Position numbers and translations under genes: made by a program. The notes beneath the pieces were generated by a model. The model ran no database searches, was not told the DNA's origin, and saw nothing but the letters and a program-made list of their open reading frames with translations. Of a DNA stretch of 64,000 nt, positions 4,961 to 46,419 are shown piece by piece. This stretch comes from Candidatus Omnitrophota bacterium (GTDB lineage: Bacteria > Omnitrophota > Gorgyraeia > JAHJTE01). Within the stretch, counting starts at the first letter, position 1; every line of letters starts with the position of its first letter. The stretch spans positions 139,809 through 203,808 of the forward strand of contig JAHJTE010000002.1 of assembly GCA_018830005.1 (NCBI GenBank), written 5' to 3'.

Positions 4961-4974
4961 AACCTATCTTTGGC

Positions 4975-6246
4975 TTAATCCTTTTTAAGCAACTCTCCCA
5001 ACTTAGATATAACCTCATCCTTAGGATATGTATTCTGGCTTCCTGTTTCCATGTCCTTCAGAGTAATCTTATTAGTTTTAATTTCTTCCTCACCCAACAT
5101 AAGTACGATTCTTGCCTTGATGTTATTGGCTCTGCGCATTTGAGCTTTAAGCGATTTATTGCAATAGTCTATATCTGCACTTATTCCAGCAGCACGTAAA
5201 TCATTCAGAAGCGACAGCCCCGCAGGTAAAAATGTCTCTTTGGTCAAGGCCAGAAAAACATCCGGCCCCCTCTTGCCTACTCCTGGCGAAGTCTTTGCTT
5301 GGCTATTAAGGCAAAGGGCAATTCGTTCAAAACCAAGAGCAAAACCAACTGCACCCATATCCGAACCACCCAGCTGTGCCACCAAATTATCATATCTACC
5401 TCCAGCACCTAAGGCATCCTGACTGCCTAGATTAGAATTAGTAACTTCAAAAACAGTGCCGGTATAATAATCAAGGCCACGCACAAGAGTCGCTACCTCG
5501 TTAAACTTCACTTTAAGCTGATTAAGAAAACCTTTCACCATCTTAAAATGACGAGCACAATCCGAACAGCGAAAGTCACTATCCAATGTAATCTCAGAAA
5601 CGATTTGTTTACAAGTTTCCTTTTTGCAATCAAGAATCCGCAATATATTCTTTTTTAGCCTCGCCTGGCAATCTTTGCAAAGCCTAGAGGCCTTGGATTG
5701 CAGTTTTTTATTCAAGATGGCTTTTAGCTTTTCTTTGTCTTTTGCACAGCCAACGCTATTTAGATTAAGGACATAATCACAAACACCAAAGCTGTTTAAG
5801 AGTCTTGTCATTAAAACTATGATCTCTGCATCAAGCGCAGGACTATAAGAACCAATAGCCTCAGCACCAATATGGGTGAATTGCCGCAAGCGTCCCTTTT
5901 GAGGCCGTTCTCCCCGAAACATTGGCCCAATATAAAAAATCTTCTTAAATCCTTCTTTTCTGTCCAGGTGATGCTCCAGATATGCACGGATAATCGATGC
6001 CGTACCCTCTGGCCTTAATGTTAGAGGCCTTTGGCTAGTTTTAATATTTAGCATCTGTTTTGTTACGATATCACTTGCCTCACCCAAGGAACGGACAAAA
6101 AGACCTGAATCTTCAAAGGCAGGGGTAATGATTTCCTCAAAAGCAAAAAGAGAGAATATTTCACGACTTTTCTCATAAATATTATATAAAAACTGAATAT
6201 CTGAACCTAAGATATCATTTGTGCCACGCGGGGCTTTATAAATCAT
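4975..6246 (-). CDS. hisS: Histidyl-tRNA synthetase
   Basis: KAPRGTNDIL signature, class II motifs, C-terminal anticodon-binding domain. A Cys-rich insertion (CxxC..C..C..CxxC) occupies aa 190-230. Confidence 0.9.
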   Translation of the reverse strand: MIYKAPRGTNDILGSDIQFLYNIYEKSREIFSLFAFEEIITPAFEDSGLFVRSLGEASDIVTKQMLNIKTSQRPLTLRPEGTASIIRAYLEHHLDRKEGFKKIFYIGPMFRGERPQKGRLRQFTHIGAEAIGSYSPALDAEIIVLMTRLLNSFGVCDYVLNLNSVGCAKDKEKLKAILNKKLQSKASRLCKDCQARLKKNILRILDCKKETCKQIVSEITLDSDFRCSDCARHFKMVKGFLNQLKVKFNEVATLVRGLDYYTGTVFEVTNSNLGSQDALGAGGRYDNLVAQLGGSDMGAVGFALGFERIALCLNSQAKTSPGVGKRGPDVFLALTKETFLPAGLSLLNDLRAAGISADIDYCNKSLKAQMRRANNIKARIVLMLGEEEIKTNKITLKDMETGSQNTYPKDEVISKLGELLKKD

Positions 6247-6382
6247 AGCTAATTAGAAAGATTTGGGGCTACAAATTAAGCTGGAATTTGTGATTAAGAA
6301 TTGAACATGAGGTTAAGTTTGGAAGTAGTCTTATCCACAAAGGATAGACCTTCCCATTCCTTTTAAGGAAGGGTCTTATCAA

Positions 6383-6655
6383 TTATCTAACTTTCTTTTT
6401 CATCTCTAATCCCGGCTTGAAGACTACTACTTTGCGCGGGGGAACTGGCACAACCTCACCAGTGCGGGGATTTCTTCCTGTCCTACTTTTTCTTTCTTTT
6501 ATTTTAAAGACACCGAAATTGCGCAGTTCTACCTTCTCGCCTCTGACCAAGGCATCCACAATTGAATCAAATGTCTTCTGGACTATCTTTTTTACTACCA
6601 CCTGTCTTACATTAGTCTGATCTGCAATCTTCAGCACTATGTCTTTCTTGGTCAT
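6383..6655 (-). CDS. hup: HU/IHF family nucleoid DNA-binding protein
   Basis: 90 aa; FGVFKIKERKSRTGRNPRTGEVVPVP arm motif; GGAGG RBS 8 nt upstream. Confidence 0.85.
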   Translation of the reverse strand: MTKKDIVLKIADQTNVRQVVVKKIVQKTFDSIVDALVRGEKVELRNFGVFKIKERKSRTGRNPRTGEVVPVPPRKVVVFKPGLEMKKKVR

Positions 6656-6804
6656 ACTCGCACCTCCAAGGTCATTTGCACGAACAAGAACATCTAATCC
6701 TAAATTATGTCCTTATTTAACATAAATACAGTACCACCAAAATGTTACGATGTCAAGTTAAATCTACTTTCTAGCAGATCTAACTTGGAATCAATATGAG
6801 AATT

Positions 6805-9800
6805 CTAGGCGTGATGATGCTCTAAGGACAGACTGAGATTAAGATTGTTACTCAACCCTTCTAATTCTGCTATAAGTTCTTTGGCAGGACGCACATACAA
6901 CTCCTTACCTACTCGTATCTGTACATGCTGCTTATGAGCATCGGTTATATCCAAGTCAACAGGCGTATTTCCTGGAAATTGCGCTAATTTTTCTTTCAAA
7001 CTCCTGATAATATTGGCATTTGAGTGTTCTATCCTTATTTTAACGTTTGCAACCAGCTTATAAACCTCTTCAAGCGGAAAGACGTAATTAGCAATTATCT
7101 TGGGGCTCTCTTCCTTTAGATTAAGCCGACCTGAAACAAAAACCACAGAGTGACCCTGCAAATAACGTTCATATTCTTTAAACACTCTAGGAAAGACTAT
7201 AACCTCTACAGAGCCCTCCAGGTCTTCAATCTTTAAAACTGCCATCTTTTCTTGTTTCTTACGAGTCGTTAAATGGCGGATCTTATTTATTAGTCCAACA
7301 ATGACAACATCTTCGGAGTCAGCGCGGCTAGCTAGCTTAGCTATAGAACAAATGGCTAGCCTGGATATATCCCTCTCGTACTTTGCTAAAGGGTGCCCTG
7401 TAACATAAAATCCTAAAACCTCCTTTTCAAAAGTCAAGACTTGAGTCTTAGGCCATTCATTAATCTTTGGTAATTCCTGGCTGTCTTTAAGAATTATATC
7501 AAAAGAGCTCTTGTCAGTTTCAAAGAAAGATAGCTGGGGGCAATTGCGTTCCTTCTGAACCCTTGAACCAATCTCGATAGCCTTTAGCAAGACCGTCATC
7601 AGCTGCGCCCGATGTGCCCCAAAACAATCTAATGCCCCACACTTAATTAAGCTCTCCAGCACCTTCTTATTCACTAATCTCGAATCAACGCGCTGACAAA
7701 GGTCAAACAAAGACATAAACTTACCGTCTTTTTTTCTTGCCTCTAATACGGAATCTATGGCACCTCTTCCTACATTTTTTACGGCCAGAAGTCCAAAGCG
7801 TATAGTTCTATCATCTTCTACAGTAAAATCAGCAAAACTTTCATTAATATTAGGCGTAGAAATCTTTATCTTGAGTACCTGCGCTTGTTTGACATACTCC
7901 ACGATTTTATCAGTATTGTCTTTTTCGCTTGAAAGAAGCGCACACATGAATTCAACAGGATAGTTGGCCTTTAGATATGCGGTGCGATATGAAATAAGGG
8001 CATAGGCGGCAGAATGACTCCGGTTAAATCCGTAACCAGAAAAATAATCAATCAAATCAAATATCCTGCGTGCAATTGCTTTATCAATCTTGTTCTTAGC
8101 ACAGCCATCGGCAAATACTCTACGTTGTTCCTCCATAACCTCAGGTATCTTCTTACTCATTGCCCGACGCAACATATCAGCTTGAGAGAGTGAAAAACCT
8201 GCTAATTCACTTGCTATGCGCATAACCTGTTCTTGATATACTATTATTCCATAGGTCTCTTCTAATATCGGCTCCAATTTAGAATGCTCATAGTGAATAT
8301 GCAGCTTGCTACGTTTTCGGGTGATATAATCATCAAGCATACCACTACCTATAGGACCAGGACGATATAGGGCAAGCAAGGCAATCAAATCTTCAAAACG
8401 AGTAGGCTGCGAACGCCTTAAGAGATCACGCATGCCTGAACTTTCAAGCTGGAAAATTCCAATACTCTTTGCAGCCGAAAGCAAATCAAAAGTCCTTTTA
8501 TCATCCAAGGGTATCTCATGGATTTTAATATCTATATTATGACGCTTCTTTATAATCTTTACGGCCTGTTCAATTACAGTAAGGGTCCTTAAACCCAAAA
8601 AATCCATTTTAAGCAGACCGATTTTTGCTACGGCATTCATTGAATAACCTGTAGTCAGCTGGCCCTCTGCCTGAAAAAGAGGTACATATTCATTTAATGG
8701 CTTATCTGAGATAACAACTCCGGCAGCATGTGTCGAGGCATGCCGCGTCAGGCCTTCTAAAACCCTGGCAGTGTCAATAAGTCTCCTGATCTGTGCATCA
8801 GTCTTATAGAGATTGGCCAATTCTGATTCTGATTTAACTGCTTCTGCGAGATGGATATTAGGATCATGGGGGATTAATTTTGCAATTCTATCTACATCTG
8901 CATAAGGTATACCCATAACCCTGCCTACATCACGAATAACTGCGCGTGCCTGCATTGTTCCAAAGGTAATGATCTGGGCGACATTTTGACTGCTGTATTT
9001 GGCTGTGACGTAGTCAATTACCTCGCCTCTTCTTTCATAACAAAAATCTATGTCAATATCCGGCAGGCTTAAACGCTGCGGATTCAAAAAGCGCTCAAAA
9101 ATCAAGCTGTACTTTAAAGGATCAATATCCGTTATACTCAGAAGAAAACTCACCAAGCTTCCCGCAGCAGAACCCCTGCCCGGCCCTACGGGGATATCAT
9201 GTTCTTTCGCATAATGGATAAAATCCCAGACAATAAGGAAATAACTCGTAAATCCGGTCTCCTTTATAATATCCAATTCATGCTCAAGCCTTGCTTTTAT
9301 TGCAGGCGTGACCTCCTGATATCTCTTTTTTAGGCCTTCCTTGCATAGATTGCGTAAGTAATCTTCTTTAGAAATTCCTCCCGGCACATTAAAATTAGGC
9401 AAATGCGTCTTGGAAAAATCTAGTTCTAGATTGCATTTTTCAGTTATGGCAATAGTATTTGAAATAGCCTCGGGCGCATAACTAAAACGCTCTTTCATCT
9501 CCTGGGGGCTTTTAAAATAAAACTCATCTGTCTGAAATCTCATTCGATTCGGGTCTGAAAGCATTGACTGTGTTTGTATGCACAGTAGCGCCTCATGCGC
9601 TGCGGCATGTTCTTTTAGAAGATAATGCACATCATTTGTAGCTACCAAGGGGATATTTAGCTCTTTGGAGATCTTTAATAATCCTTCATTGACCTTGGTT
9701 TGCTCTGGGATTCCATTTTCTTGAATCTCTAAATAAAAATTGCCTTTTCCAAGAATCTGATAATATTCATCAGCAACCTTAAATGCATCATTCATTCTGG

Positions 9801-10257
9801 AGGCAGCAATCAAAGATGAGATCTCTCCCTTTAGGCAGGCACTTAAACCGATTAAACCTTCCTGATACTTACTCAATGACTCTTTGTCAATGCGTGGCCG
9901 ATAATAGAAACCTTCCAGATAGCCGATGGAAGTCAATTTCATAAGATTCTTATAGCCCATTTCATCCTTAGCTAATAGGATAAGATGGTAAGAGCTTTCA
10001 GAAATACCTGAGGAAGATTTCTCAAATCTACTTTTTGGGGCAACGTAGACCTCAGAACCAATTATTGGCTTTATACCTGCCTTCATTGCCGCAAGATAAA
10101 AATCAATTGCCCCAAACATATTACCGTGATCAGTAATAGTTAAGGCCGGCATCCTAAATTGTTGGGCAAGCTTTACTATCTCTTTAATTCGGCAGGCGCC
10201 GTCTAGAAGGCTGTATTGGGTATGCAAATGAAGATGGACAAAATCAGAATGCGGCAT
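6805..10257 (-). CDS. dnaE: DNA polymerase III alpha subunit
   Basis: N-terminal PHP domain (HLHLHTQYSLLDGA), 1150 aa, polymerase core and OB-fold regions. Confidence 0.95.
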   Translation of the reverse strand: MPHSDFVHLHLHTQYSLLDGACRIKEIVKLAQQFRMPALTITDHGNMFGAIDFYLAAMKAGIKPIIGSEVYVAPKSRFEKSSSGISESSYHLILLAKDEMGYKNLMKLTSIGYLEGFYYRPRIDKESLSKYQEGLIGLSACLKGEISSLIAASRMNDAFKVADEYYQILGKGNFYLEIQENGIPEQTKVNEGLLKISKELNIPLVATNDVHYLLKEHAAAHEALLCIQTQSMLSDPNRMRFQTDEFYFKSPQEMKERFSYAPEAISNTIAITEKCNLELDFSKTHLPNFNVPGGISKEDYLRNLCKEGLKKRYQEVTPAIKARLEHELDIIKETGFTSYFLIVWDFIHYAKEHDIPVGPGRGSAAGSLVSFLLSITDIDPLKYSLIFERFLNPQRLSLPDIDIDFCYERRGEVIDYVTAKYSSQNVAQIITFGTMQARAVIRDVGRVMGIPYADVDRIAKLIPHDPNIHLAEAVKSESELANLYKTDAQIRRLIDTARVLEGLTRHASTHAAGVVISDKPLNEYVPLFQAEGQLTTGYSMNAVAKIGLLKMDFLGLRTLTVIEQAVKIIKKRHNIDIKIHEIPLDDKRTFDLLSAAKSIGIFQLESSGMRDLLRRSQPTRFEDLIALLALYRPGPIGSGMLDDYITRKRSKLHIHYEHSKLEPILEETYGIIVYQEQVMRIASELAGFSLSQADMLRRAMSKKIPEVMEEQRRVFADGCAKNKIDKAIARRIFDLIDYFSGYGFNRSHSAAYALISYRTAYLKANYPVEFMCALLSSEKDNTDKIVEYVKQAQVLKIKISTPNINESFADFTVEDDRTIRFGLLAVKNVGRGAIDSVLEARKKDGKFMSLFDLCQRVDSRLVNKKVLESLIKCGALDCFGAHRAQLMTVLLKAIEIGSRVQKERNCPQLSFFETDKSSFDIILKDSQELPKINEWPKTQVLTFEKEVLGFYVTGHPLAKYERDISRLAICSIAKLASRADSEDVVIVGLINKIRHLTTRKKQEKMAVLKIEDLEGSVEVIVFPRVFKEYERYLQGHSVVFVSGRLNLKEESPKIIANYVFPLEEVYKLVANVKIRIEHSNANIIRSLKEKLAQFPGNTPVDLDITDAHKQHVQIRVGKELYVRPAKELIAELEGLSNNLNLSLSLEHHHA

Positions 10258-10402
10258 GATACCTTGAATAAAAATGGATTAAGGAAATTTGGATGTGCTC
10301 TTATTATACCAGATTTAAAACTAGGTAGGTATTAATTTTTAAACCCTGAGATTAAATCTATTATTCGCGCATTGCAGTCGGCGCAAAAATCTTTAAATAC
10401 TA

Positions 10403-11944
10403 TTATTCCCATTCAATAGTTGCCGGCGGCTTTGAACTTATGTCATAGACTACACGATTGACGCCTCTTATTTCATTGATAACTCGATTAGAGATTATTT
10501 CTAAAAGGCCTCTAGGTAGCCTTGCCCAGTCAGCTGTCATACCATCTCGGCTCGTAACAGCCCGGATTGCAACCACATTCTCATAAGAGCGTTTATCACC
10601 CATGACTCCCACTGTTTTTATCGGTAACAAAACTGCAAATGCCTGCCAGATAGCATCGTATTTACCAGCCTTTTTTATCTCTTCAATAACAATCGCATCA
10701 ACCTCTCTTAGAATCTCCAAGCGCGCCTCAGTTACCTCTCCGATTATACGCACAGCAAGCCCTGGTCCAGGAAACGGATGTCGATTAGCTATCGAGCCAG
10801 GTAATTCTAATACGTGTGCAATCTGCCTCACCTCATCCTTGAATAATTCTCTTAAAGGCTCTATAAGTTTTAGCTTTAAATTCTTAGGCAGGCCTCCCAC
10901 ATTGTGATGGCTTTTTATTTTGGCACTGGGAGATCCAGTGCTTGAGACTGACTCTATAACGTCTGGATAAAGCGTGCCTTGTGCGAGAAATTTTGCATCC
11001 TTAAATTTACGCGCCTCTTCTTTAAATACGTTTATAAATTCGCGTCCGATAATTATGCGTTTCTTCTCTGGGTCAGTAACCCTCCTCAGCTTGCTTAAGA
11101 AACGTTTTCTGGCGTCTACAAAATCAATGTCCAGATTAAGGTTATCCGCGAATGTCTCTTTTAGCCTTTTTGCTTCATCTTTTCTCAGGAGACCATTATC
11201 AACAAAAATACACTTTGACTGTCTAGAACAGGCCTTATGTAAAAGTATAGCCAATACAGAAGAATCAACCCCGCCTGAGAGCCCACAGATAACCTCACCC
11301 TTACCAACCTTGTTTCTGATATTGGAAATTGTCTCTTTAACAAACGACTCTATCTGCCAAGTGCCTTTACATTTACAAATTTTAAATAAAAAATTAGCTA
11401 ATATATTATTACCCAAAGGAGTATGGACAACCTCAGGATGAAACTGAACGCCATAAATCCTTTTTTTAGCATTGGCAATACTGGCAAAAGTACTATTCCT
11501 ACTATGGGCAATCGCACTAAAGTTTACAGGCGCTTTCTTTAGACAATCTCCGTGGCTCATCCAGCAGGAAATCTTCTTTGGCAAAGACTTAAATAAATCA
11601 CCCCTGCTTTTTATAAGAAGATTTGCCTTCCCGTATTCGCGCCTCCCACTACGCCCTACCTCTCCACCCAATAAATAAGCCATTAATTGCATTCCGTAAC
11701 AAATCCCTAAGATAGGAATGCCAAGATTAAAGATGCCTTTATGAGGTAAGGGGGCATTGCGATCATAAACGCTTGCCGGACCACCAGAGAGAATTATGCC
11801 TTTGGGTTTGAGTGCGCGAATGCGACTTGGACTAATGGAAAATGGAACAATCTGACTGTAGGCCTTTAGTTCACGGATGCGCCTTGCTATCAACTGAGTA
11901 TACTGAGAACCAAAGTCTAATATTAGGATAGTTTCGCGAGACAT
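10403..11944 (-). CDS. guaA: GMP synthase (glutamine-hydrolysing)
   Basis: GATase-1 N-terminal domain plus ATP-pyrophosphatase SGGVDSSV motif; C-terminal ...ATIEWE. Confidence 0.95.
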
Positions 11945-11956
11945 TAAGGAAGTGAA

Positions 11957-13117
11957 TTATTTGCCCATTCCTACTCGTTGTACAGCCTGAAAGATTTTTC
12001 CCTCGGTCTGAATAGAAGGGGCAATAATTATTTCTACATCGTGCATCTGGCGAATTGTTGACACGCCAAGAGAGCCCATTGAAGTTGCTAAGGCACCCAT
12101 CAAATTCTGTGAGCCGTCATCGACTTTAGCCGGCCCGAAAAGAATCTCTTCTAAGGTTCCTACTGTCTTGACATTAATACGCGTACCGCGAGGAAGGTTA
12201 ACATGACTGGTTGCCATACCCCAATGAAAACCGCCTCCGGGAGCCTCTTTTGCCCTGGCAAAGGAAGAACCAATCATTACTGCATCCGAACCAGAGGCAA
12301 ACGCCTTGCATATATCCCCACCCGTATGCATACCACCGTCACATATTATAGGAACGTATCTGCCTGAACGTTTATAATAGTAATCCCTGGCAGCAGCTGC
12401 ATCAATTGTAGCTGTAACCTGAGGCACGCCAATACCAAGAACGCCGCGCGTAGTACAGGCTGCTCCAGGACCAATGCCAACAAGTACACCAGCAACACCA
12501 GTAGAAAGTAAATCTAACGTAACCTCATGGGTAACACAGTTGCCGACTAAAACCGGCACCTTCATGCCTTCTACAAACTTCTTTATATCTAAAGACTTGT
12601 ATGCCTTCGAAATATGTTTCGCTGTGGTAACCGTAGACTGAATTACAAAAAAATCAACTCCGGCTGAGGAGGCAATCTCTCCAAAACGCTTAGCATTCTG
12701 GGGAGTACAACTTACAATCACAGAAACCTTCTCTTCTTTTATCTGACCTATTCTTTTGGCAACCAACTTTTCTTTAATCGGCTCTTTATAAATTGACTGT
12801 ACTAATCTAGTTGCCTCTTCGTTTCCAGCCTTGGCTATTTTTCTTAAAACAAGGGCTGGCTTCTCGTAGCGAGTCTGTATGCCTTCGAGGTTTAAGACTG
12901 CAAGACCTCCTAATTTTCCCATTGTTACAGCAAAACGGACATCAACCACCCCATCCATTGCTGCAGCAATTATCGGTACCTTGAATGATTTATCTCCCAA
13001 CTTAAAACTGGTATCTACCTCAAGAGGATTCACAGTCACATTTCCCGGGACAAGCGCAACCTCATCAAAACCATAACAACGTCTTGCTCGCCTTCCTATG
13101 CCAACCCATTCTGCCAT
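11957..13117 (-). CDS. IMP dehydrogenase family protein lacking CBS subdomain (GuaB-related)
   Basis: TIM-barrel IMPDH motifs GIGPGAACTTRGVLGIGVPQ with the catalytic Cys. Only 386 aa, so no CBS pair. Adjacent to guaA. Confidence 0.7.
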   Translation of the reverse strand: MAEWVGIGRRARRCYGFDEVALVPGNVTVNPLEVDTSFKLGDKSFKVPIIAAAMDGVVDVRFAVTMGKLGGLAVLNLEGIQTRYEKPALVLRKIAKAGNEEATRLVQSIYKEPIKEKLVAKRIGQIKEEKVSVIVSCTPQNAKRFGEIASSAGVDFFVIQSTVTTAKHISKAYKSLDIKKFVEGMKVPVLVGNCVTHEVTLDLLSTGVAGVLVGIGPGAACTTRGVLGIGVPQVTATIDAAAARDYYYKRSGRYVPIICDGGMHTGGDICKAFASGSDAVMIGSSFARAKEAPGGGFHWGMATSHVNLPRGTRINVKTVGTLEEILFGPAKVDDGSQNLMGALATSMGSLGVSTIRQMHDVEIIIAPSIQTEGKIFQAVQRVGMGK

Positions 13118-38101: not shown

Positions 38102-38174
38102 AGCTGGCGAGAGGAATCGAACCCCCGACGTCCTCATTACAAGTGAGGTGCTCTACCAACTGAGCTACGCCAGC
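38102..38174 (-). tRNA. tRNA-Thr (anticodon TGT); integration target, 5' half shared with the attR repeat
   Basis: Acceptor GCTGGCG/CGCCAGC, D-stem GCTC/GAGC, anticodon stem CCTCA/TGAGG with loop CUUGUAA, T-loop TTCGATT. 73 nt. Confidence 0.85.
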
Positions 38175-38175
38175 A
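38137..38175. repeat. attL: 39-bp direct repeat covering the anticodon loop through the 5' end of tRNA-Thr
   Basis: ttacaagtgaggtgctctaccaactgagctacgccagca is identical to 46381..46419. Confidence 0.85.
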
Positions 38176-38197: not shown

Positions 38198-39259
38198 TCA
38201 ATGAACTACAACAACAGACTTTTCTTCCGATTTCTTAACAATAGCCTCTGGTGACCAAATAGTGTCCATTCGCTTGCTTAAAACGTCCACTGCACGCTTC
38301 TTATGGTCAGGCGAAAGGTGACTATATCTAAGGGTCATTTTAAGGGATTTGTGTCCTAGAAGCTCTCTAACAGTATTTAAATCGACTCCTGACATAACAA
38401 GATGTGAGGCAAAGCTATGCCGTAAATCGTGGAAACGGAAGTTAATTATACCTGCTTTCCTCATTGCTGTAAAGAATGATTTTCTTACATTACCATAAGG
38501 TTCACCCTTATCATTACAAAAGACATATGGACTCTCAGAATGTTTCTTTGTTCTAATAAGAGCGGTCTTAACTTTTTCATTCATAGGTATTTCTCTCTTA
38601 TCTCCATTCTTAGTATTAAGTAGGTGAATTATCCCTCGCCTAAAATCGCAGTCCTGCCATTTAAGATTAAGTATCTCACCCCTACGCATCCCAGTGTTTA
38701 AAGCTACGATAACAATCGGTTTTAGATGTTTACTACATTTTGCCAGCAATTTAATTATTTCCTCTTTCTCAAGATAGCGAAGTCTCTTGTTATTCTCCTT
38801 AAAAAGTTTTACTTTAAGCACAGGATTATCTCTTGCCTTTCCCCACTCAATAGCACGATTATACATAGACTTAAAACAAGCAAGAGCTCTATTAACTGTT
38901 GCTGGTGAAACTTCCTTTATTCTTTTTGCCTTGTATCTCTCAACATCTTGGGGCGTTACCTCATAAAGATATTTGCCTGCAAAATACTTTTTTAGATTCT
39001 GGATAATGATAAGGTCTGATTTCTGCCAAGACCTGTTGTTTGGTTTACTATGAAGCTCTAAATATTCATTAGCAAAATCCTCAAACTTAATCTTTAATTC
39101 TTTTCGGACATCTAGATGTTTATTCTCAGCTACCTCTACTAGTCTTTTCTTGAGGACTTGCTCTGCTAAGACTTTACTAGAAGATATCTTCTGTCTAATA
39201 CGCTTACCGTTAGCGTAGTAATCAATCCACCAATTACCTTTTTTAAGATAGACAGCCAT
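38198..39259 (-). CDS. int: Tyrosine-type site-specific recombinase (phage integrase family)
   Basis: C-terminal catalytic box HDLRHSFASHLVMSGVDLNTVRELLGHKSLKMTLRYSHL with the R..H..R..Y residues; N-terminal SAM-like domain. Confidence 0.9.
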   Translation of the reverse strand: MAVYLKKGNWWIDYYANGKRIRQKISSSKVLAEQVLKKRLVEVAENKHLDVRKELKIKFEDFANEYLELHSKPNNRSWQKSDLIIIQNLKKYFAGKYLYEVTPQDVERYKAKRIKEVSPATVNRALACFKSMYNRAIEWGKARDNPVLKVKLFKENNKRLRYLEKEEIIKLLAKCSKHLKPIVIVALNTGMRRGEILNLKWQDCDFRRGIIHLLNTKNGDKREIPMNEKVKTALIRTKKHSESPYVFCNDKGEPYGNVRKSFFTAMRKAGIINFRFHDLRHSFASHLVMSGVDLNTVRELLGHKSLKMTLRYSHLSPDHKKRAVDVLSKRMDTIWSPEAIVKKSEEKSVVVVH

Positions 39260-39281: not shown

Positions 39282-40487
39282 TTACTCCAAAAGTTTTTCT
39301 GATAGACCTTTCATTACTACATAAGGTTGTAATAAAGGATTTTTAAATCTATACCTGTATCTTCTCTTTCCTCCAGTTTTGACTAAAGTAAACCCTCTTT
39401 TTTCTGAACAAAAATCTGATAGATGGCGATTAAAGGTGGCAATGTTCACTTTATGCTTTACGATTCTTTCCAAAGGTTCACGTACATCAGCAGGAGCAAA
39501 ATAACCTAACTCATCTACTTGACATAACGCACAAGCAAACAATACTTGTTTAAATAAAGTATCTTTCCTTGGACTTGTAGTAGCTTTGGTATAAGCATTT
39601 ATAATAATTTGTTGAGCATCATTTATGGCATCATTTATACCTTCAAATAAATCTGTATCAGTGATATTCAAGCGTTGAGATTGCAAAGCTTTCCTTGTAG
39701 CTGCCAAACCAACTAAATGCGTATAATGTGGGAGCCCTTGAGATAAACGTACTATCTCCTGCTTTACTTTAGGATCAATCGACATTTTAAGTTCTTGAAC
39801 TGCTGAATTAATTATTCCACTTAGTTCATCTGACTTCATTCTGGGCATCAAAATTTGTACCAATGACCTATCAATAGATGCGTGTTCCTTCACTAATTCT
39901 TCGATGCTATCAGCTACACCGATTAAAATAATCGTAACATCTATTGAGTAATCAGAAAGCATCTTAATTGTGTCTGCAAGCAACGCCGTTACTTTACCCT
40001 TTTTGATTCTATCAAACTCATCAAATATAAAGACAAAACTTATGTCTTTTATTTGTTGGAGCTTACGAATATCTTCAATTTTTATTCCGTTTTCTTTTAC
40101 CACCAAATCTTTTAAAGAAACAAGCGTTTCTTTGCTTTGCTGACTAAAGCCAATACTTGGCTCCTCCATTATAAGAGATACATTATTTAAGGTTTTGCTC
40201 CATAAAGACGAAAAACTATCAGAAATATCACAATTGACTCTTGAGCAAAGTATCTTATGTTTAGCTAAAGGTTCAAGAACTTCCTGTAGAATATTTGCCA
40301 ATGAAGTTTTCCCAACTCCTCTTTCTCCATAAATGACGCTATGTTGACCTCTGGCAAAGATTAAATCAATAACACGATCCAATTGATAATCTCTTCCAGA
40401 GAATAGACTCCTTTTATCTATTGGGGTTGAAGGACTAAAGAAGCGACCAGCATAAAAAGATTTTTGTTTATAATCAATTCCTTCCAT
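39282..40487 (-). CDS. AAA+ / P-loop ATPase (Arch_ATPase/AAA_16-like; possible Orc1/Cdc6-like initiator or defence NTPase)
   Basis: FSGRDYQLDRV ... Walker A GERGVGKTSLA, Walker B FIFDEFDRI. 401 aa, and the C-terminal part is possibly a winged helix. Confidence 0.6.
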   Translation of the reverse strand: MEGIDYKQKSFYAGRFFSPSTPIDKRSLFSGRDYQLDRVIDLIFARGQHSVIYGERGVGKTSLANILQEVLEPLAKHKILCSRVNCDISDSFSSLWSKTLNNVSLIMEEPSIGFSQQSKETLVSLKDLVVKENGIKIEDIRKLQQIKDISFVFIFDEFDRIKKGKVTALLADTIKMLSDYSIDVTIILIGVADSIEELVKEHASIDRSLVQILMPRMKSDELSGIINSAVQELKMSIDPKVKQEIVRLSQGLPHYTHLVGLAATRKALQSQRLNITDTDLFEGINDAINDAQQIIINAYTKATTSPRKDTLFKQVLFACALCQVDELGYFAPADVREPLERIVKHKVNIATFNRHLSDFCSEKRGFTLVKTGGKRRYRYRFKNPLLQPYVVMKGLSEKLLE

Positions 40488-40584: not shown

Positions 40585-40767
40585 TTAGGTTAATGGTTTT
40601 ATCCCTTTCTTATTTACCCAAGTATCTATTTCCCTAAGGTCAAATCTTAAGGCACCATGGAACTTATGGCAAGGGATTTTTCTATGGCAGACCCAGTTGT
40701 AAAGTGTCTTTACTGCTACACCCAAATACTGAGATAAGTCCTTAATTCCTACGAAACGTCTTTCCAT
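40585..40767 (-). CDS. xis: AlpA-family excisionase / phage transcriptional regulator (HTH)
   Basis: 60 aa; IKDLSQYLGVAVKTLYNWVCHRKIP..F is typical of AlpA/Xis DNA-binding proteins next to integrases. Confidence 0.75.
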   Translation of the reverse strand: MERRFVGIKDLSQYLGVAVKTLYNWVCHRKIPCHKFHGALRFDLREIDTWVNKKGIKPLT

Positions 40768-41000
40768 TCTAAATGCTCAAATTTCTATTTTGCCCCTAAA
40801 GTCTACTTATTAAGCTCCCTTTACTCCTAAAATTCACCTTTTTCCCGTATAATTGCTGCTAGTTTTTCCTCTTTTTCAAGGCTAAATATTAACCTTTTAA
40901 GTTCAAATGTCTCAAAAAAATTAACCTTTTTACACTTAAATCTCAGTATTTTTCAGTAAAATAACATACTTGAACACCCTTGAACAACCTTTTTCCTTAA

Positions 41001-41073
41001 CATTTCTTAGCATTTCTTAGTATTTCTTAGTAATATGTCAACATTTGTCAATAATATGTTAGCATTTGTTAGC
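41001..41073. repeat. Iteron-like array: about 7 imperfect 10-11-bp direct repeats in an AT-rich intergenic region (putative origin)
   Basis: catttcttag / catttcttag / tatttcttag / taatatgtcaa / catttgtcaa / taatatgttag / catttgttagc. Confidence 0.65.
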
Positions 41074-41171: not shown

Positions 41172-41363
41172 TCAACTATCTCTTTTTTGCGTAGGAATTG
41201 AAAATTTCCCACCAATGCCTGATCTCTTTGGATTTTTCCCAAAACGATACATAAACAAAGCACAATCTGTAATCTCGCAGCTTCTGACCTCTGAAGGCTG
41301 CCCTGCTGAACAATCAAGACATTTTGCTCTTATGGCCTTTATTGGAGTTAAGCGCTTCATCAT
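41172..41363 (-). CDS. Small Zn-ribbon protein (C4-type)
   Basis: 63 aa with CLDC-x13-C-x4-C spacing. Overlaps the upstream ORF by 50 bp. Confidence 0.45.
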   Translation of the reverse strand: MMKRLTPIKAIRAKCLDCSAGQPSEVRSCEITDCALFMYRFGKNPKRSGIGGKFSIPTQKRDS

Positions 41364-41889
41364 CTATTTCCTCCAAAATTTTATCTATCAACTTCCCGTC
41401 ATAGCCTCTATCCACATAGAAACTCCTTGCTTTTTTACTGCCACTAACCTTAATAATACCTCTCACCCCTTCCTTAATCTCCTTTTCTGAGGAAAATTGA
41501 TTATCAATATACTTTATTTCTTTATTTATTTCTTTATTTGGGGTAACATTTTGTTGCCCTATACTTGACATTTTGTTATCCTTAGAAGAATTTTTGTTAG
41601 CCTTTCTTTGCTGAATAAAGGATAACAATTTATTAGGCTGTACTAATATCCAATATTTTGTAGCCTCGGTCTTCCATCTCCCCCTAGTACATTTAATAAG
41701 ACCTATCTCCAGCAAATCCGCCACCTGTCTACCTATTGTTGCTTCACAAGCAAACTCTTCCTCAGCTAGCCTTTTATCATCATAGTAAAATGAGCCGTCA
41801 GACTCTAGCATCCTTTTTCTACAAAAGTATTTATATTTGCTAGCTAAATTATAAAATAATGATTTAAGGGGCTGTCTCATTCTTTTCAT
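41314..41889 (-). CDS. Hypothetical winged-helix protein, possible replication initiator of the element
   Basis: The N-terminal region has wH/HTH character (EATIGRQVADLLEIGLIKCTRGRW) and the C-terminus is K/E-rich. Lies beside the iterons. Confidence 0.4.
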   Translation of the reverse strand: MKRMRQPLKSLFYNLASKYKYFCRKRMLESDGSFYYDDKRLAEEEFACEATIGRQVADLLEIGLIKCTRGRWKTEATKYWILVQPNKLLSFIQQRKANKNSSKDNKMSSIGQQNVTPNKEINKEIKYIDNQFSSEKEIKEGVRGIIKVSGSKKARSFYVDRGYDGKLIDKILEEIDDEALNSNKGHKSKMS

Positions 41890-42181
41890 TTTCTTTCACC
41901 ACTTTTTCCATCAATTCTTCGTATTTCTGAAATATAGCTTTGTTAATTATTTCTGCGGTTTCTCGGTTAATAGGATAAAAAATGTTGATCTCTTTGCCAT
42001 TGGGCAATACTTTAATGGGATATAGCAAACGGTAGCCTTCGCCATTTGGACGTGAGTAAATTGCGATTGAATTTAGAGAGATAGAATCATTGATTACACA
42101 GGAAGCAAAGCCCAAAAGGCCTTTCTCGGTAGGTTTAACTGGTATGACGACTGATTCGGTAATTACGATTTCGCTCATCAT
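41864..42181 (-). CDS. spoVG: SpoVG-family nucleic-acid-binding protein
   Basis: Pattern match across the SpoVG core: GLLGFASCVINDSISLNSIAIYSRPNGEGYRLLYPIKVLPNGKEINIFYPINRETAEIINKAIFQKYEE versus B. subtilis ..[65 protein letters not shown]. Confidence 0.7.
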   Translation of the reverse strand: MMSEIVITESVVIPVKPTEKGLLGFASCVINDSISLNSIAIYSRPNGEGYRLLYPIKVLPNGKEINIFYPINRETAEIINKAIFQKYEELMEKVVKENEKNETAP

Positions 42182-42325: not shown

Positions 42326-43306
42326 TCAGCCAATTTTAAGGGGAGGCAAACCAAAAAGAACACCTTTATCAGGGGGAGGCATATTCAATTGAGCTATCTG
42401 CTCACTCATTCTTTTTATAGCTTTCTTGATTACATCTTGGAGGGGAGAAATACCTGTAGAAATCAATTTACCTTTTCTTCCTTCTTGCTTACCAGTTAGA
42501 TAATGCTGTTTTGCCTCTGTAAAATCTGCTTTATATTTGTCAGAAAGAAAACCATTTACTATCTCTTCATGTAATTGATGATCATCCAAAACCTTTCCTT
42601 GTAAATCCTCTTTTTTAATCGTGTCTTTGATTCTTCTGGTAATCAGAATATCAATATCCCGCATATGAAATCTCTTTTCTATTTCAGCAATCTTTTTTAT
42701 TGAAAATCCTTTTTTCTCCACATCATACCATCTCAAATCTCGTTCAAAATTGCCCTTACCTTCTATTTTGGATAAATAATACTTCTGCAATCTTTCGACA
42801 TCCTTCCATTTTTTTCTAATATCTTCTAAAGTAGCCCATTTTGTAATTGTAATTGAAATGCTATCCCTGCCTTTTCTAGGGTCTTGATCGAGATGTATTT
42901 CTACTGGTTCTCTTATAAACTTCCACAAATTGCTAAGATTGCATTCCCATCCTTCTCCTATACACCATCTATCACAAAATTCAAACCAAGAATCCCTAAA
43001 GCGCTCAAAGACTGACTGTAATTCATATAAATCATTACTGTTCCTTAAAGGCTTAAGGGCTTTTTTTCTAAGGTCATTACACTTATTGCAATAATCTTTC
43101 GCTTCTTTAACTAATTCTGGATATTTATTAACTTTGAAAAAACGAAGCACCTGCCTAGAAGGATCATGTCTGTTCCCAATTTTATCTAGTTTTTTGGCTA
43201 GCGGAAAATACTTCCTGCCTATTCTTTTCATAATTGCATTAAGTTCTTTATTAAACATCTCATTTCTTATAAGCAATTGAATTCTTTGAGTTTTCTTTTT
43301 CTCCAC
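42326..43306 (-). CDS. Hypothetical protein (326 aa, K/E/R-rich, no recognisable domain)
   Basis: Long ORF with codon usage like its neighbours. No motif recognised. Confidence 0.5.
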   Translation of the reverse strand: MEKKKTQRIQLLIRNEMFNKELNAIMKRIGRKYFPLAKKLDKIGNRHDPSRQVLRFFKVNKYPELVKEAKDYCNKCNDLRKKALKPLRNSNDLYELQSVFERFRDSWFEFCDRWCIGEGWECNLSNLWKFIREPVEIHLDQDPRKGRDSISITITKWATLEDIRKKWKDVERLQKYYLSKIEGKGNFERDLRWYDVEKKGFSIKKIAEIEKRFHMRDIDILITRRIKDTIKKEDLQGKVLDDHQLHEEIVNGFLSDKYKADFTEAKQHYLTGKQEGRKGKLISTGISPLQDVIKKAIKRMSEQIAQLNMPPPDKGVLFGLPPLKIG

Positions 43307-43329
43307 TTCTTCCTCACATCTTTAAAATT

Positions 43330-43911
43330 TCAAGTATCGCTGTCAGATGATTCCTTAGTATGTTGTGGTATTTTATTCAGATTAGCTAATTCTCTTAATG
43401 CTTTTAACATATCTTTTGCAGTTCGTCTAACCGCAGCTACCGCAGCCTGATGTTCACTCCATCCCATCAATAGCCCGCTTGGCTTATGACTTACGGAAAC
43501 TATCTGTCCAGTTTTTGTATCAATCATTTTTACTGTAGCAAAAGCATTCAGAGTTAACCCGTTATTATATGAAGTTATGTTACCTAACAGTACCACTTCA
43601 GCATTAACCGATTCTCCAATTTTTTGTGCTTCAAGAATAGTAATAGCGTTATTGACATCGTTTTTTACGCCTATTTTAGTAATTGCAAACTGAATTGTTG
43701 AAGGCTCAACAAGTACGAAATCATCTTGCTCTAAAAGGTGGAGATTTAGTGTGTCTGTGGCTACTTGAGTAAATCGCATGTCTCCTGAAAAAGGTAAAAC
43801 CGCAATTTTTGACCAATTATTCGGAATAAACTTACTATTTCTTCTAAAATAAGAAGGATTAGCGCATCCAACCAAACCCAAACATAACAAGACAACAAGA
43901 ATCTTCTTCAT
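43330..43911 (-). CDS. Lipoprotein (possibly CsgG/LpoB-like fold)
   Basis: Signal peptide MKKILVVLLCLGLVGCA with lipobox; IAVLPFSGD ... segment resembles the (V/I)AVLPF motif of CsgG/LpoB-like lipoproteins. Confidence 0.5.
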   Translation of the reverse strand: MKKILVVLLCLGLVGCANPSYFRRNSKFIPNNWSKIAVLPFSGDMRFTQVATDTLNLHLLEQDDFVLVEPSTIQFAITKIGVKNDVNNAITILEAQKIGESVNAEVVLLGNITSYNNGLTLNAFATVKMIDTKTGQIVSVSHKPSGLLMGWSEHQAAVAAVRRTAKDMLKALRELANLNKIPQHTKESSDSDT

Positions 43912-43948
43912 CTCTCACCTCATCCTTATTTCATATTTTCTGATATTC

Positions 43949-44299
43949 TCATCTGCGTATCTCTATCACAGTATCCGCTTCTTTTTTTAATCTTGGCCGC
44001 TTCAGCTCTAGGTCATCTGCATCAAGACACATAAAATGAACTTCTGCTTTTGGAAAATTAGTTAGTATATACGGTGGCTTGGCCTCGCTGATATGAATTA
44101 CCTGAAAGTGCTTTCCTTGATTTTCACAAAATTCGTTAGCCTCTTGTAATGCTTTAGCCTTGAGTTTCCCCGAACCAGAAAAACCCGTAGCCGCTTGACG
44201 AGAGACCATAAAAGTGTCTTGCCCCATTGGAACCACGCCTGAATTTATCGCACACCCAACCAATCCTAAACACAATAAGACAATTAAAATCTTTTTCAT
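43949..44299 (-). CDS. Small lipoprotein
   Basis: Signal peptide MKKILIVLLCLGLVGCA is almost identical to that of the upstream lipoprotein. The mature part is unrelated. Confidence 0.5.
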   Translation of the reverse strand: MKKILIVLLCLGLVGCAINSGVVPMGQDTFMVSRQAATGFSGSGKLKAKALQEANEFCENQGKHFQVIHISEAKPPYILTNFPKAEVHFMCLDADDLELKRPRLKKEADTVIEIRR

Positions 44300-44334
44300 A
44301 TCTTACCCCCAAGCAACTATTAATTGTTTTTTAT

Positions 44335-44751
44335 TCATTTTCTATTAGCATTTGGCTTAACAAAAAACTTTGAACGATGCATAGCCCAAATAACAAGCGG
44401 GAACGCAGCTAAAAGAGAAGTTGTCCTTTCTGCAAGGTAAGGTTTAGATATTAAAACTGCAATTAAACTCGCAGGAATCATTAAAAAGGCGTGTATAATC
44501 CAAATTCCAATTATCCAAAATATGCGTTTGGGAATACTCCAACCTCGGTCAGTGCAAGCAGCCAAAATAGCAAAAATCAACATTATCAATATGGTAAATC
44601 CAGACTCGTGACTGTAAGAACCTCCACTTCGTGCAATTATCCCAGCGCCAACAGTGCTTATCAACCAAAAGACAATTAAACCTAACCACCAGCGTTTTGG
44701 TTTCCATTTCCAATTTGTTTTATTACTTTTTTCCATCGCCCCGCCAACCAT
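44335..44751 (-). CDS. Hypothetical membrane protein (3-4 TM)
   Basis: Hydrophobic segments; basic N-terminus. Confidence 0.45.
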   Translation of the reverse strand: MVGGAMEKSNKTNWKWKPKRWWLGLIVFWLISTVGAGIIARSGGSYSHESGFTILIMLIFAILAACTDRGWSIPKRIFWIIGIWIIHAFLMIPASLIAVLISKPYLAERTTSLLAAFPLVIWAMHRSKFFVKPNANRK

Positions 44752-44814
44752 TAATTGCTTTCTATGTAACGCTTCTCCTTAAAATCAACTTCGCTTTTGG
44801 TATATACTACAAAG

Positions 44815-45090
44815 TTACCCCTTAAGTTCCCTAATACATCTCTTTAGATTTGCAGTCATCAATTTAATGATGGGGAAATACAATGGGATAAGTAAAGGCA
44901 AAGCAATAATACAAGCTCCATTCAATACAATGTCTGAATAAGGATTAGGCATCAAGGGATATATAACAAAATATAAGATTGTTACCAAAAGCCACGCAAT
45001 TAATAATGGCACTCCTAACAATAATATATTGATAATAATTTTTAATCCGATAAGGTAAGTTTTAAAAAATTGCCTTTGTTTTTCATCCAT
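44815..45090 (-). CDS. Small hypothetical membrane protein (2-3 TM)
   Basis: 91 aa and highly hydrophobic. Confidence 0.4.
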   Translation of the reverse strand: MDEKQRQFFKTYLIGLKIIINILLLGVPLLIAWLLVTILYFVIYPLMPNPYSDIVLNGACIIALPLLIPLYFPIIKLMTANLKRCIRELKG

Positions 45091-45237: not shown

Positions 45238-45264
45238 AAACAAAAACCCCAGCTCATCACTGGG
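45238..45264 (-). terminator. Putative rho-independent terminator downstream of the PIN gene
   Basis: On the minus strand, stem CCCAG/CTGGG with a 7-nt loop is followed by TTTTTGTTT. Confidence 0.4.
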
Positions 45265-45296: not shown

Positions 45297-45854
45297 TTAG
45301 CTAGGCTTGAGTCTGTCTGGAAAAGTTTGGTAATTATTCGGATCTAATACAGCTATACTCAATCTCTCGGCAACTTTAGCCATTGCCAAATCGCATGTTA
45401 CAAGAAAAAAATCTTTATGTCTCTTCTTAAAATTTGCTGCCATTCCTACTATCAAAACATCTATACAACTAAGGAAGTCTCTTTCTTCATTATATTCTAA
45501 ATATATATCTCTTGCATGATCAAATATTTCATACGTTTTTATAATATCCTTACGTGTTATAGAACATATATTATATTTTCGTTTTTCAAGATCATATGTA
45601 AAATTGGTTTTCATCGTTAAAAATTTATCATCATTTATACGTTTACTTTTATCTGTATATCTCTTAGTGTAAAATACCAAAAACGTTTCAGTAATACAGA
45701 TGTCTGGCAAAAATAAAGAGAGCCTATTAGCTCTCTTTTTATCTTTTTTGTGGCTCTCTATCCAAAATGTAACTGCTTTTGTTCCAGTCGGCTCCTTATT
45801 GTAATACTTTACAAAGGCACTCGTATCAAAGAATAATTCATCATTTCTTTTCAT
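45297..45854 (-). CDS. PIN-domain protein (VapC-like toxin)
   Basis: N-terminal FFDTSAFVKYY PIN motif with the conserved Asp, and a further acidic residue near the C-terminus (TCDLAMA). Confidence 0.6.
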   Translation of the reverse strand: MKRNDELFFDTSAFVKYYNKEPTGTKAVTFWIESHKKDKKRANRLSLFLPDICITETFLVFYTKRYTDKSKRINDDKFLTMKTNFTYDLEKRKYNICSITRKDIIKTYEIFDHARDIYLEYNEERDFLSCIDVLIVGMAANFKKRHKDFFLVTCDLAMAKVAERLSIAVLDPNNYQTFPDRLKPS

Positions 45855-46044
45855 CCCCGTTCCTTCGTAACTTAATTACAGTGCCTGATAAATTAAGATT
45901 GCCTGTTTTCTTCAGCAATTCATCGTGCGCACAAACATATTTCTTTAAGTCCTTGGGAACGCAAAAACCTTTCTCGTCAACAAAGATGCTTTTAATAGTC
46001 TGAAATAATTTAACCATAATTTTCTTCTCCCTCATTATACCCAC
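45841..46044 (-). CDS. Putative antitoxin partner of the PIN toxin (small upstream ORF overlapping by 14 bp)
   Basis: 67 aa. Has the classic overlapping antitoxin-toxin arrangement, with an inverted repeat in its promoter region. Confidence 0.45.
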   Translation of the reverse strand: MGIMREKKIMVKLFQTIKSIFVDEKGFCVPKDLKKYVCAHDELLKKTGNLNLSGTVIKLRRNGDEKK

Positions 46045-46074: not shown

Positions 46075-46380
46075 TACCAATCACTGTCAAGCTTTTCAAA
46101 TTTTGCTATTCGCACCAAAGATACCCCCTATTTATTATATCTATATCAAAAGCGATAAGGTGTACTCCTCAATTTGATTTTACCCATAAGACTCAATATA
46201 TACATACCCAAGGGGGTGCCTTTGGGACGCCTAGGGGGTTGGTGTCCAAATAGTGTCCATCTGATGGGGAAAAATGGGGTAATTCGGGGAAGAGCAGAGA
46301 CTAAAATATTTTATGTAAGTGGTTGGGAGTTAATATATTTAATTGAATTTCAAGAGGTTAGGAAAAATACTTCTATCGCT

Positions 46381-46419
46381 TTACAAGTGAGGTGCTCTAC
46401 CAACTGAGCTACGCCAGCA
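46381..46419. repeat. attR: displaced 5' half of tRNA-Thr (39-bp direct repeat, pseudo-tRNA fragment)
   Basis: Identical to 38137..38175. The flanking sequence is not tRNA-like on the element side. Confidence 0.85.

Follow-up and report, generated by a model that had tools for sequence, protein, structure and literature searches.

This analysis concerns five open reading frames (ORFs) at positions 42326-45090 of a 64,000-nucleotide stretch of DNA (the window) from contig JAHJTE010000002.1 of a Candidatus Omnitrophota bacterium. The ORFs lie in an island of 8,244 bp with the features of a small integrative element, and an earlier note on the window had treated them as one cargo block with the layout of an exclusion or defence system. 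Our results favor a different arrangement. The block is very probably a composite rather than a five-gene system, in which one gene, p326, belongs to the backbone of a family of elements, and two lipoproteins, here called Lpp1 and Lpp2, may form an envelope-directed pair. All five ORFs are co-directional on the minus strand, as had been claimed, and are the following.

42326-43306, minus strand: p326, 326 aa, GTG start; cytoplasmic, highly charged; backbone gene bordering the variable cargo slot
43330-43911, minus strand: Lpp1, 193-aa lipoprotein (Cys16); predicted alpha/beta domain of PelC/LpoB/CsgG/TolB-N type with a long C-terminal helix
43949-44299, minus strand: Lpp2, 116-aa lipoprotein (Cys16); predicted beta-beta-alpha-beta-beta (bb-a-bb) domain, two further conserved Cys
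44335-44751, minus strand: TM133/138, basic membrane protein with 3 hydrophobic segments; 138 aa from 44751, 133 aa from the ATG at 44736
44815-45090, minus strand: TM91, putative 91-aa membrane protein with 2-3 hydrophobic segments; coding status weakly supported

Conserved homologues support the coding status of the 326-, 193- and 116-aa ORFs. For TM133, gene callers place the start at 44736 (133 aa), not at 44751 (138 aa). An open frame of 133 codons would be expected 0.23 times by chance in the AT-rich island and one of 91 codons about three times, so that the case for TM91 comes down to its position, a plausible ribosome-binding site, its hydrophobic segments and its annotation by gene callers. 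No relatives were found for either membrane protein: their 90% clusters hold just the window's own two sequences, none were found on viral contigs, and both are unlike the small membrane ORFs that lie beside Lpp1 or Lpp2 homologues elsewhere. TM133 gave one match to the SLATT pore protein model, at E 0.016 (the curated cut-off being 55 bits). None of the five proteins matches a defence model of PADLOC-DB 2.0 at E <= 0.1.

p326 and the variable cargo slot

The 326-aa protein had been called an orphan, and this proved wrong. A word-indexed search returns only one relative, whereas an exhaustive HMMER search gives 90 cluster representatives, 73 of which fall below 1e-10. The family has no Pfam or PDB-sequence match (56 members searched) and none of its members is found on viral contigs; p326 itself is highly charged and without a hydrophobic segment. 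We examined 45 metagenomic loci of p326 relatives (comparison loci are cited below by numbers with the prefix L). In 15 of these, small helix-turn-helix (HTH) or HTH_17 genes come next on the same strand, and a tyrosine integrase homologous to that of the window follows 2-3 kb downstream in 9-10 of the 45 (phmmer E down to 3e-78). Now and then there are small genes of SpoVG-like or Cys-rich type, with a SpoVG-like gene after p326 in L117 and L118. The genes upstream of p326 vary from locus to locus, and Lpp1, Lpp2 and the TM proteins occur at none of the 45.

Since p326 co-varies with integrase and excisionase genes, never with the lipoproteins, and since its upstream genes vary, it is a backbone gene at the edge of a variable cargo slot, and not envelope cargo. 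The order of the backbone is p326, small HTH/excisionase gene, replication genes and integrase, and between p326 and the far attachment (att) site the gene content of sister elements is quite different. In the window copy the slot is occupied by a PIN toxin-antitoxin pair and, as a separate unit, TM91, TM133, Lpp2 and Lpp1. When the island proteins were compared by HMM, phmmer and tblastn with 92 Lpp2 loci, about eight Lpp1 loci and the 45 p326 loci, no shared combination was found: p326 and the TM genes are in none of the 92 Lpp2 loci, and the Lpp1 loci have neither. The five genes thus fail as a single module, and a conserved five-gene module was rejected as a candidate.

Two lipoproteins and their families

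Lpp2 belongs to a large and strongly conserved lipoprotein family that is without a curated family, a named homologue or a structural relative. Its matches fall into more than 480 clusters and are 63-87% identical over the full length among the 120 matches listed; across phyla, identity within the family is 50-76%. Lpp2 was detected in 102 of 185,579 species-representative genomes, a lower bound insofar as the scan needs exact motifs, and the genomes belong to Burkholderiales, Nitrospira, Desulfuromonadaceae, Planctomycetales, Acidobacteriota, Acinetobacter, Shewanella, Omnitrophota and others. The family is also present on 12 viral contigs and 19 plasmids. A motif, VSRQAATGFSGSG, is conserved, and of the cysteines beyond that of the lipobox C58 is invariant and C91 nearly invariant. 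The bb-a-bb domain (predicted local distance difference test score, pLDDT, of 81) is fused to SHOCT in 14 of 85 members, and PEGA fusions occur too. A full-text literature search found no paper on the Lpp2 lipoprotein family or on the element.

The genomic contexts of Lpp2 are diverse. Neither clustering of the ±3 neighbours nor a Pfam census of 149 ±1 neighbours revealed a constant partner gene, and the sole recurring neighbours are regulators of the XRE/CI type. A CI/S24 repressor lies directly upstream of Lpp2 on the same strand in L064, L101-L103, L108 and L110, its identity having been verified with PHROGs in L110 and L102. In L110 the Lpp2-family gene overlaps the stop codon of CI (phrog_4, 1e-40), and the opposite strand carries a divergent Cro-like gene and a replication initiator, as in a textbook immunity region. 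In eight loci Lpp2 adjoins a small divergent XRE gene, and 15 of 80 genome loci have a recombinase within 8 kb. Tandem divergent paralogues of Lpp2 are present in L070, L102, L103, L108 and L162.

Other copies are placed on elements and plasmids of several kinds. One that is 74% identical ends a different element with an HTH_17 gene and a Toprim/DUF3987 primase, one sits in a serine-recombinase element, and one stands beside a restriction-modification pair. Mobilizable plasmids with Lpp2 measure 3-7 kb; distant copies are carried by two of them, a 6-kb MOBQ plasmid and a 3.3-kb MOBP plasmid on which the gene adjoins an HTH gene and mob genes. Family members include a 112-aa gene at 981-1319 of the Klebsiella plasmid NZ_CP067051.1, a gene of Acinetobacter johnsonii pAJ_082-7, and copies behind CI in Massilia or Luteibacter prophages. 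Prophage immunity regions, minimal mobilizable plasmids and small integrative elements often carry Lpp2 as a passenger. The neighbourhood check proposed in the earlier note came out divided: the Lpp2 family recurs on prophages, plasmids and islands, and both lipoprotein families are also found in plain chromosomal settings.

Two further observations on Lpp2 loci deserve mention. The element of L162, which carries an HTH_17 gene and a Toprim/DUF3987 primase, has three lipoprotein genes at its end (4961-6351), namely a divergent Lpp2 paralogue, an unrelated 146-aa lipoprotein and Lpp2. In Thiobacillus (L004, 6451-7161) the gene after the Lpp2 homologue has weak HEPN matches (RiboL-PSP and HepT-like, E 0.02-0.05), hinting at a possible conflict-type gene even in a chromosomal context.

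Lpp1 has about 25 close relatives and a lipobox, LVGC, at residues 13-16. The CsgG/LpoB-like motif pointed out earlier is real (IAVLPFSG) and goes with weak matches to FlgO (5.6e-4), CsgG (8e-3) and LpoB (2e-2) in Pfam, all under the curated cut-offs. Specifically, Lpp1 scores 15.0 bits against LpoB PF13036 (cut-off 22.3), 35.6 bits and 8.9e-9 against TIGR02722 (cut-off 110.55), and 15.9 bits against CsgG PF03783 (cut-off 20.8). The earlier statement that none of the five proteins could be assigned from sequence fails for Lpp1, which NCBI names 'CsgG/HfaB family protein'.

An AlphaFold (AF2) model of Lpp1 built from 23 sequences reached a pLDDT of 86. Its best Foldseek match is PelC (E 1.5e-7 to 1e-5; target template-modelling (TM) score 0.55-0.67, and 0.62-0.67 for the top match), followed by CT253, LpoB (4q6l, E 3.7e-6; 4q6z, E 7.3e-6), GNA1162, CsgG, FlgT and the TolB N-domain. 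Against CsgG chains the TM score is 0.30-0.43, with a root-mean-square deviation above 10 A. Judged by this model, Lpp1 adds a new member to a well-known class of folds found in lipoproteins that face the periplasm. Clear structural matches to envelope-biogenesis proteins, here PelC, LpoB, CsgG and GNA1162, are the outcome that the earlier note had named as speaking against its own proposal.

The known members of the class differ from Lpp1 in several respects. PelC (5t11, 5t0z, 9h80) is a lipoprotein of similar size with an alpha/beta core and a C-terminal helix; however, Lpp1 is only 14-18% identical to it and has a conserved segment of its own, SHKPSGLL.GWSEHQ. PelC is encoded in the pelA-G operon and forms a dodecameric ring under PelB, whereas no pel genes are present in the island or beside Lpp1 homologues. 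LpoB, CsgG/HfaB, GNA1162/DUF799 and FlgO/FlgT share the TolB-N-like fold class with Lpp1. In Escherichia coli LpoB, which binds and activates PBP1B via UB2H, a long disordered linker joins the lipid anchor to the globular domain; in the Lpp1 model there is no long disordered linker, the first strand beginning at residue 21, five after Cys16. Unlike CsgG, Lpp1 (193 aa) is modelled as the core sheet only, with no transmembrane hairpins, and the island contains no csgE/F, hfaA/D, curli, holdfast or flagellar genes.

Homologues of Lpp1 are found in two kinds of surroundings: amid housekeeping genes (coaBC-like, thrS/infC) in L011-L014, and beside ParA, HTH and Toprim-like genes in L015-L018. A LAGLIDADG-like ORF lies directly upstream of the Lpp1 homologue in L013 (1489-2259) and L014 (680-1450), while the gene calls of the otherwise syntenic L011 and L012 list nothing at that position. 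In L015 (1788-2807) and L016 (3674-4696) a gene downstream of the homologue encodes about 340 aa with DYDPSG, a Toprim-like motif recognized by eye; by BLAST its product is unrelated to p326.

A link between the two lipoproteins is seen at a few loci, in Omnitrophota only. The leaders, MKKILVVLLCLGLVGCA in the first and MKKILIVLLCLGLVGCA in the second, are identical in 16 of 17 residues and are followed by unrelated mature parts, as the earlier note had described; they are encoded at 43861-43911 and 44249-44299. Their DNA, by comparison, agrees in 40 of 51 nt, with 10 of the 17 codons differing and 9 of the 10 changes synonymous. Because most of the codon changes are synonymous, identity has been kept at the peptide level and is not the product of a recent swap. 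Recent duplication or recombination of the leader is thereby rejected, the proposal of modular shuffling behind a common leader finds no support as a recent event, and the near-identity would imply selection on the exact leader sequence. In another Omnitrophota genome (L010/L020) an Lpp2-SHOCT protein is encoded two genes from an LpoB-like lipoprotein, both with the same leader type (L020, 8001-8051 and 9175-9225; 14/17 aa, 40/51 nt). The same type also heads an unrelated 136-aa lipoprotein (L054, 12723-13133), while two chromosomal lipoproteins in the window carry other leaders, and in other organisms leaders vary freely within each lipoprotein family.

In Ca. Zapsychrus exili (L054, 7974-8822) one 282-aa protein joins the Lpp2 domain to a full LpoB domain (PF13036 1.7e-15) that is more typical than that of Lpp1. 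The surrounding chromosomal cluster (5816-12029) has three recently duplicated LpoB-domain lipoproteins, of which one has no N-terminal module, one the Lpp2 domain and one another domain that is uncharacterised. Lipoproteins of 452 and 147 aa and a 548-aa protein whose C-terminus is trypsin-like are encoded there as well; among the products of the cluster are one TPR-like lipoprotein and one paralogue fused to a protease. In this genome an LpoB scaffold seems to have had different periplasmic modules swapped onto it. The fusion and the co-location are moderate evidence that Lpp1 and Lpp2 act together in Omnitrophota.

The integrative element and its borders

The description of the block as accessory DNA on an integrative element is supported by the integrase and by the borders of the island. 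A tyrosine integrase lies beside a tRNA gene, repeats of part of that tRNA stand at both ends, and base composition deviates (GC 0.34 against 0.40 in the flanks). The remaining features of the island are given below.

38102-38174, minus strand: intact tRNA-Thr(tgt) gene
38137-38175: direct repeat (39 nt) on the attL side, with the sequence of the 5' half of that tRNA-Thr(tgt) gene
38198-39259, minus strand: tyrosine integrase (Phage_integrase, Int_N), element backbone
39282-40487, minus strand: nSTAND1/AAA_16 P-loop ATPase, 401 aa (nSTAND1 2.6e-8)
40585-40767, minus strand: HTH_17 excisionase/AlpA-like small DNA-binding protein, backbone
41172-41363, minus strand: 63-aa Cys-rich protein, backbone replication/regulation module (41172-42181)
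41314-41889, minus strand: 191-aa replication-initiator/DnaD-like protein (phrog_428 1.7e-5), backbone module
41864-42181, minus strand: SpoVG-like protein (SpoVG 2.3e-7), backbone; overlaps the start of the replication-initiator-like gene
45239-45211, minus strand: sigma-70-like promoter TTGACA-17-TAAAAT (11/12), upstream of TM91 and after the terminator-like hairpin
45248-45264, minus strand: terminator-like hairpin after the PIN gene
45297-45854, minus strand: PIN-domain toxin
45841-46044, minus strand: small antitoxin-like ORF overlapping the PIN gene; gene callers use the 58-aa start (58-67 aa)
46090-46061, minus strand: sigma-70-like site (11/12), upstream of the toxin-antitoxin pair
46381-46419: attR-side 39-nt direct repeat, the displaced 5' half of tRNA-Thr

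Along the direction of transcription the order is antitoxin-like ORF, PIN toxin, TM91, TM133, Lpp2, Lpp1 and p326, followed by the SpoVG-like gene, the 191-aa and 63-aa genes, HTH_17, the nSTAND1 ATPase and the tyrosine integrase. The PIN gene and the small upstream ORF that overlaps it are likely a toxin-antitoxin pair at the att-distal end. The promoter-like site at 45239-45211 is likely to be the start of a TM91-TM133-Lpp2-Lpp1(-p326) transcript, to judge from its consensus and position, and no terminator-like site was found from TM91 to p326. A 195-kb contig of ENA and a Logan contig of 6.2 kb also carry the element, and NCBI labels the proteins of the island Candidatus Omnitrophota/Omnitrophica.

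In its tyrosine integrase at a tRNA, direct-repeat att sites, excisionase-like HTH gene, replication-initiator-like gene, toxin-antitoxin pair and variable accessory region, the island resembles other small tRNA-integrating islands. It differs from them in a backbone that includes the 326-aa family and a SpoVG-like gene, and in its 39-nt repeat, perfect between its two copies, which is the 5' half of the tRNA. The usual att repeat of such elements is the tRNA 3' end. Consequently, the upstream region of the co-oriented tRNA-Thr, tRNA-Tyr and tRNA-Gly genes has been displaced by 8.2 kb, and these tRNAs may depend on read-through from the integrase gene, which ends 23 nt upstream of the intact tRNA-Thr, or on a promoter borne by the element.

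Some smaller features were recorded in the same region. A 21-nt direct repeat, TGGTG[A/T]CCAAATAGTGTCCAT, is found at 38249-38269 and 46240-46260 (20/21 identical); its copies are placed about 75-140 nt inside each island end, one of them within the 3' end of the integrase gene, and show no similarity past the 21 nt. They could be arm-type binding sites of the integrase. Short tandem direct repeats at 40884-41068 and 41546-41582 (25 nt at a distance of 21 nt, 15 nt at 32 nt and 15 nt at 22 nt), which lie in intergenic DNA upstream of the excisionase-like gene and within the replication-initiator-like gene, may serve as iterons or operators. The nSTAND1/AAA_16 ATPase, between the excisionase-like gene and the integrase, has a weak PADLOC mad8 match (2.6e-6) and is possibly a defence or regulatory NTPase of the element.

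Interpretation of the two lipoproteins

Our overall explanation, to which we assign a probability of about 0.55, combines the composite block with an envelope-acting pair whose likely role is exclusion or immunity. According to this explanation both lipoproteins would be exported by the Sec system, lipidated at Cys16 and, given alanine at the +2 position, probably sorted to the periplasmic face of the outer membrane. Lpp1 would be an oligomeric or adaptor scaffold comparable to PelC and LpoB, and Lpp2 would work with Lpp1 or on a conserved component of the envelope. Expressed from the integrated element, the pair could alter the envelope to the advantage of element and host alike, the most likely way being to keep out incoming phage or plasmid DNA or a toxin that acts in the periplasm.

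That Lpp2, with Lpp1, serves exclusion or immunity is, taken by itself, advanced tentatively and at clearly less than even odds, since its support is purely positional. Lysogens and plasmids are known to express exclusion lipoproteins, among them phi80/N15 Cor, T5 Llp, F-plasmid TraT and TP-J34 Ltp. The Lpp2 family likewise consists of small lipoproteins on prophages, plasmids and islands, and in at least six loci the gene lies directly behind CI in the same direction, a position typical of lysogen-expressed genes. In contrast to these proteins, Lpp2 is far more conserved and taxonomically broader, and is without sequence or fold similarity to any annotated phage protein. The earlier claim of a defence-type layout thus keeps one part, in that the Lpp2 family is often found at sites of lysogen-expressed exclusion genes, and loses the other, as the five genes do not form a module. 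Rather unlikely, and ranked by us below the role itself, is the wider proposal that Lpp2 represents a new and widespread class of envelope lipoproteins with which mobile elements, from prophages to 3-kb plasmids, would protect their hosts against incoming phage or plasmid DNA or a periplasm-acting toxin, together with a PelC/LpoB-fold scaffold in Omnitrophota; if it were true, the high conservation would mean that the target is universal in the diderm envelope.

A number of observations weigh against an exclusion or immunity pair. No known homologue ties Lpp1 or Lpp2 to such a function, and exclusion and immunity proteins usually diversify, so that 50-76% identity across phyla is unusual for them. 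The Lpp2 model has no significant fold match in the PDB or BFVD; its members, divergent ones included, match no Pfam, NCBIfam, PHROG-function or PADLOC model; and Lpp2 has no match in the 50,697 isolated phage genomes of INPHARED. Many of its loci appear non-mobile, and in Thiobacillus, as well as in a context kept across several Undibacterium species, Lpp2 looks purely chromosomal. The link between the two lipoproteins amounts to two or three Omnitrophota loci: 90 of the 92 Lpp2 loci are without an adjacent LpoB-like gene, and Lpp2 is absent from the Lpp1-homologue loci L011-L018. Outer-membrane sorting was read from the +2 rule of E. coli, and Omnitrophota may not obey it. Finally, both promoter and terminator were identified by consensus matching only, and promoter-like sites show no enrichment relative to shuffled sequence (26 found against 21.3 expected).

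Almost as likely as exclusion or immunity is an ordinary hitch-hiking function, in which Lpp1 and Lpp2 would be accessory lipoproteins of envelope biogenesis or cell-wall regulation, LpoB-like adaptors of a periplasmic enzyme or exporter, that the element has merely picked up and that play no part in conflicts with phages, plasmids or competitors. The best structural matches of Lpp1 are all envelope-biogenesis lipoproteins, its homologues stand between coaBC-like and thrS/infC housekeeping genes, and the Lpp2-LpoB fusion of L054 is within a chromosomal cluster of LpoB paralogues; the conserved chromosomal settings of Lpp2 in Undibacterium and Thiobacillus point the same way, and its very high conservation fits a conserved cellular partner. 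Nevertheless, genes behind CI repressors, on 3-kb plasmids nearly free of other cargo and at the ends of unrelated elements do not follow a housekeeping pattern, Lpp2 was detected in just 102 of the 185,579 species genomes (a lower bound), and Lpp1 stays below the curated cut-offs of LpoB and CsgG.

Lpp2 and its paralogues could also be an orphan cassette of periplasmic immunity against a type VI secretion effector, a bacteriocin or a peptidoglycan hydrolase, carried about by mobile elements, which we consider improbable. Small periplasmic lipoproteins on plasmids, prophages and islands, the tandem divergent paralogues of the five loci named above, and HEPN-like and restriction-modification genes among the neighbours would be in keeping with it; however, no toxin or secretion-system gene was seen beside any Lpp2 copy, conservation is far above the norm for immunity proteins, and no structural match to known immunity or lysozyme-inhibitor folds was found.

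The original suggestion, that all five genes make up one novel envelope system for superinfection exclusion, defence or anti-defence, is largely refuted and must now be considered very unlikely. The tight co-directional spacing, with a single strong promoter-like site upstream and no internal terminator-like site, and the lack of known domains covering all five are compatible with it, whereas the co-variation of p326 with the integrase/excisionase backbone and the TM ORFs being without any relatives are not. Least credible of all is a remnant phage lysis cassette with TM91/TM133 as holin and antiholin and the lipoproteins as o-spanin-like proteins: small membrane proteins do precede outer-membrane lipoproteins, and the Lpp1 leader has a very weak PHROG match to an Rz-like spanin (E 0.026), but that match spans the signal peptide only, Lpp1 and Lpp2 are folded domains of 100-180 aa with chromosomal relatives, and the reading is ruled out by an island that has no endolysin (muramidase, amidase), i-spanin or structural phage genes.

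In conclusion, the block as a whole points to no new five-gene system, and its useful by-products are the Lpp2 family and the 326-aa family. The latter marks a previously undescribed family of small integrative elements with a defined cargo slot in sediment and groundwater bacteria, and offers a handle for cataloguing their cargo. We regard the Lpp2 family as the main point of interest in the block. Its presence behind prophage repressors and on minimal plasmids of Klebsiella, Enterobacter, Aeromonas and Acinetobacter makes it testable in tractable hosts, and if Lpp2 does exclude phages or plasmids, it would constitute a broadly distributed, envelope-level barrier to gene transfer.

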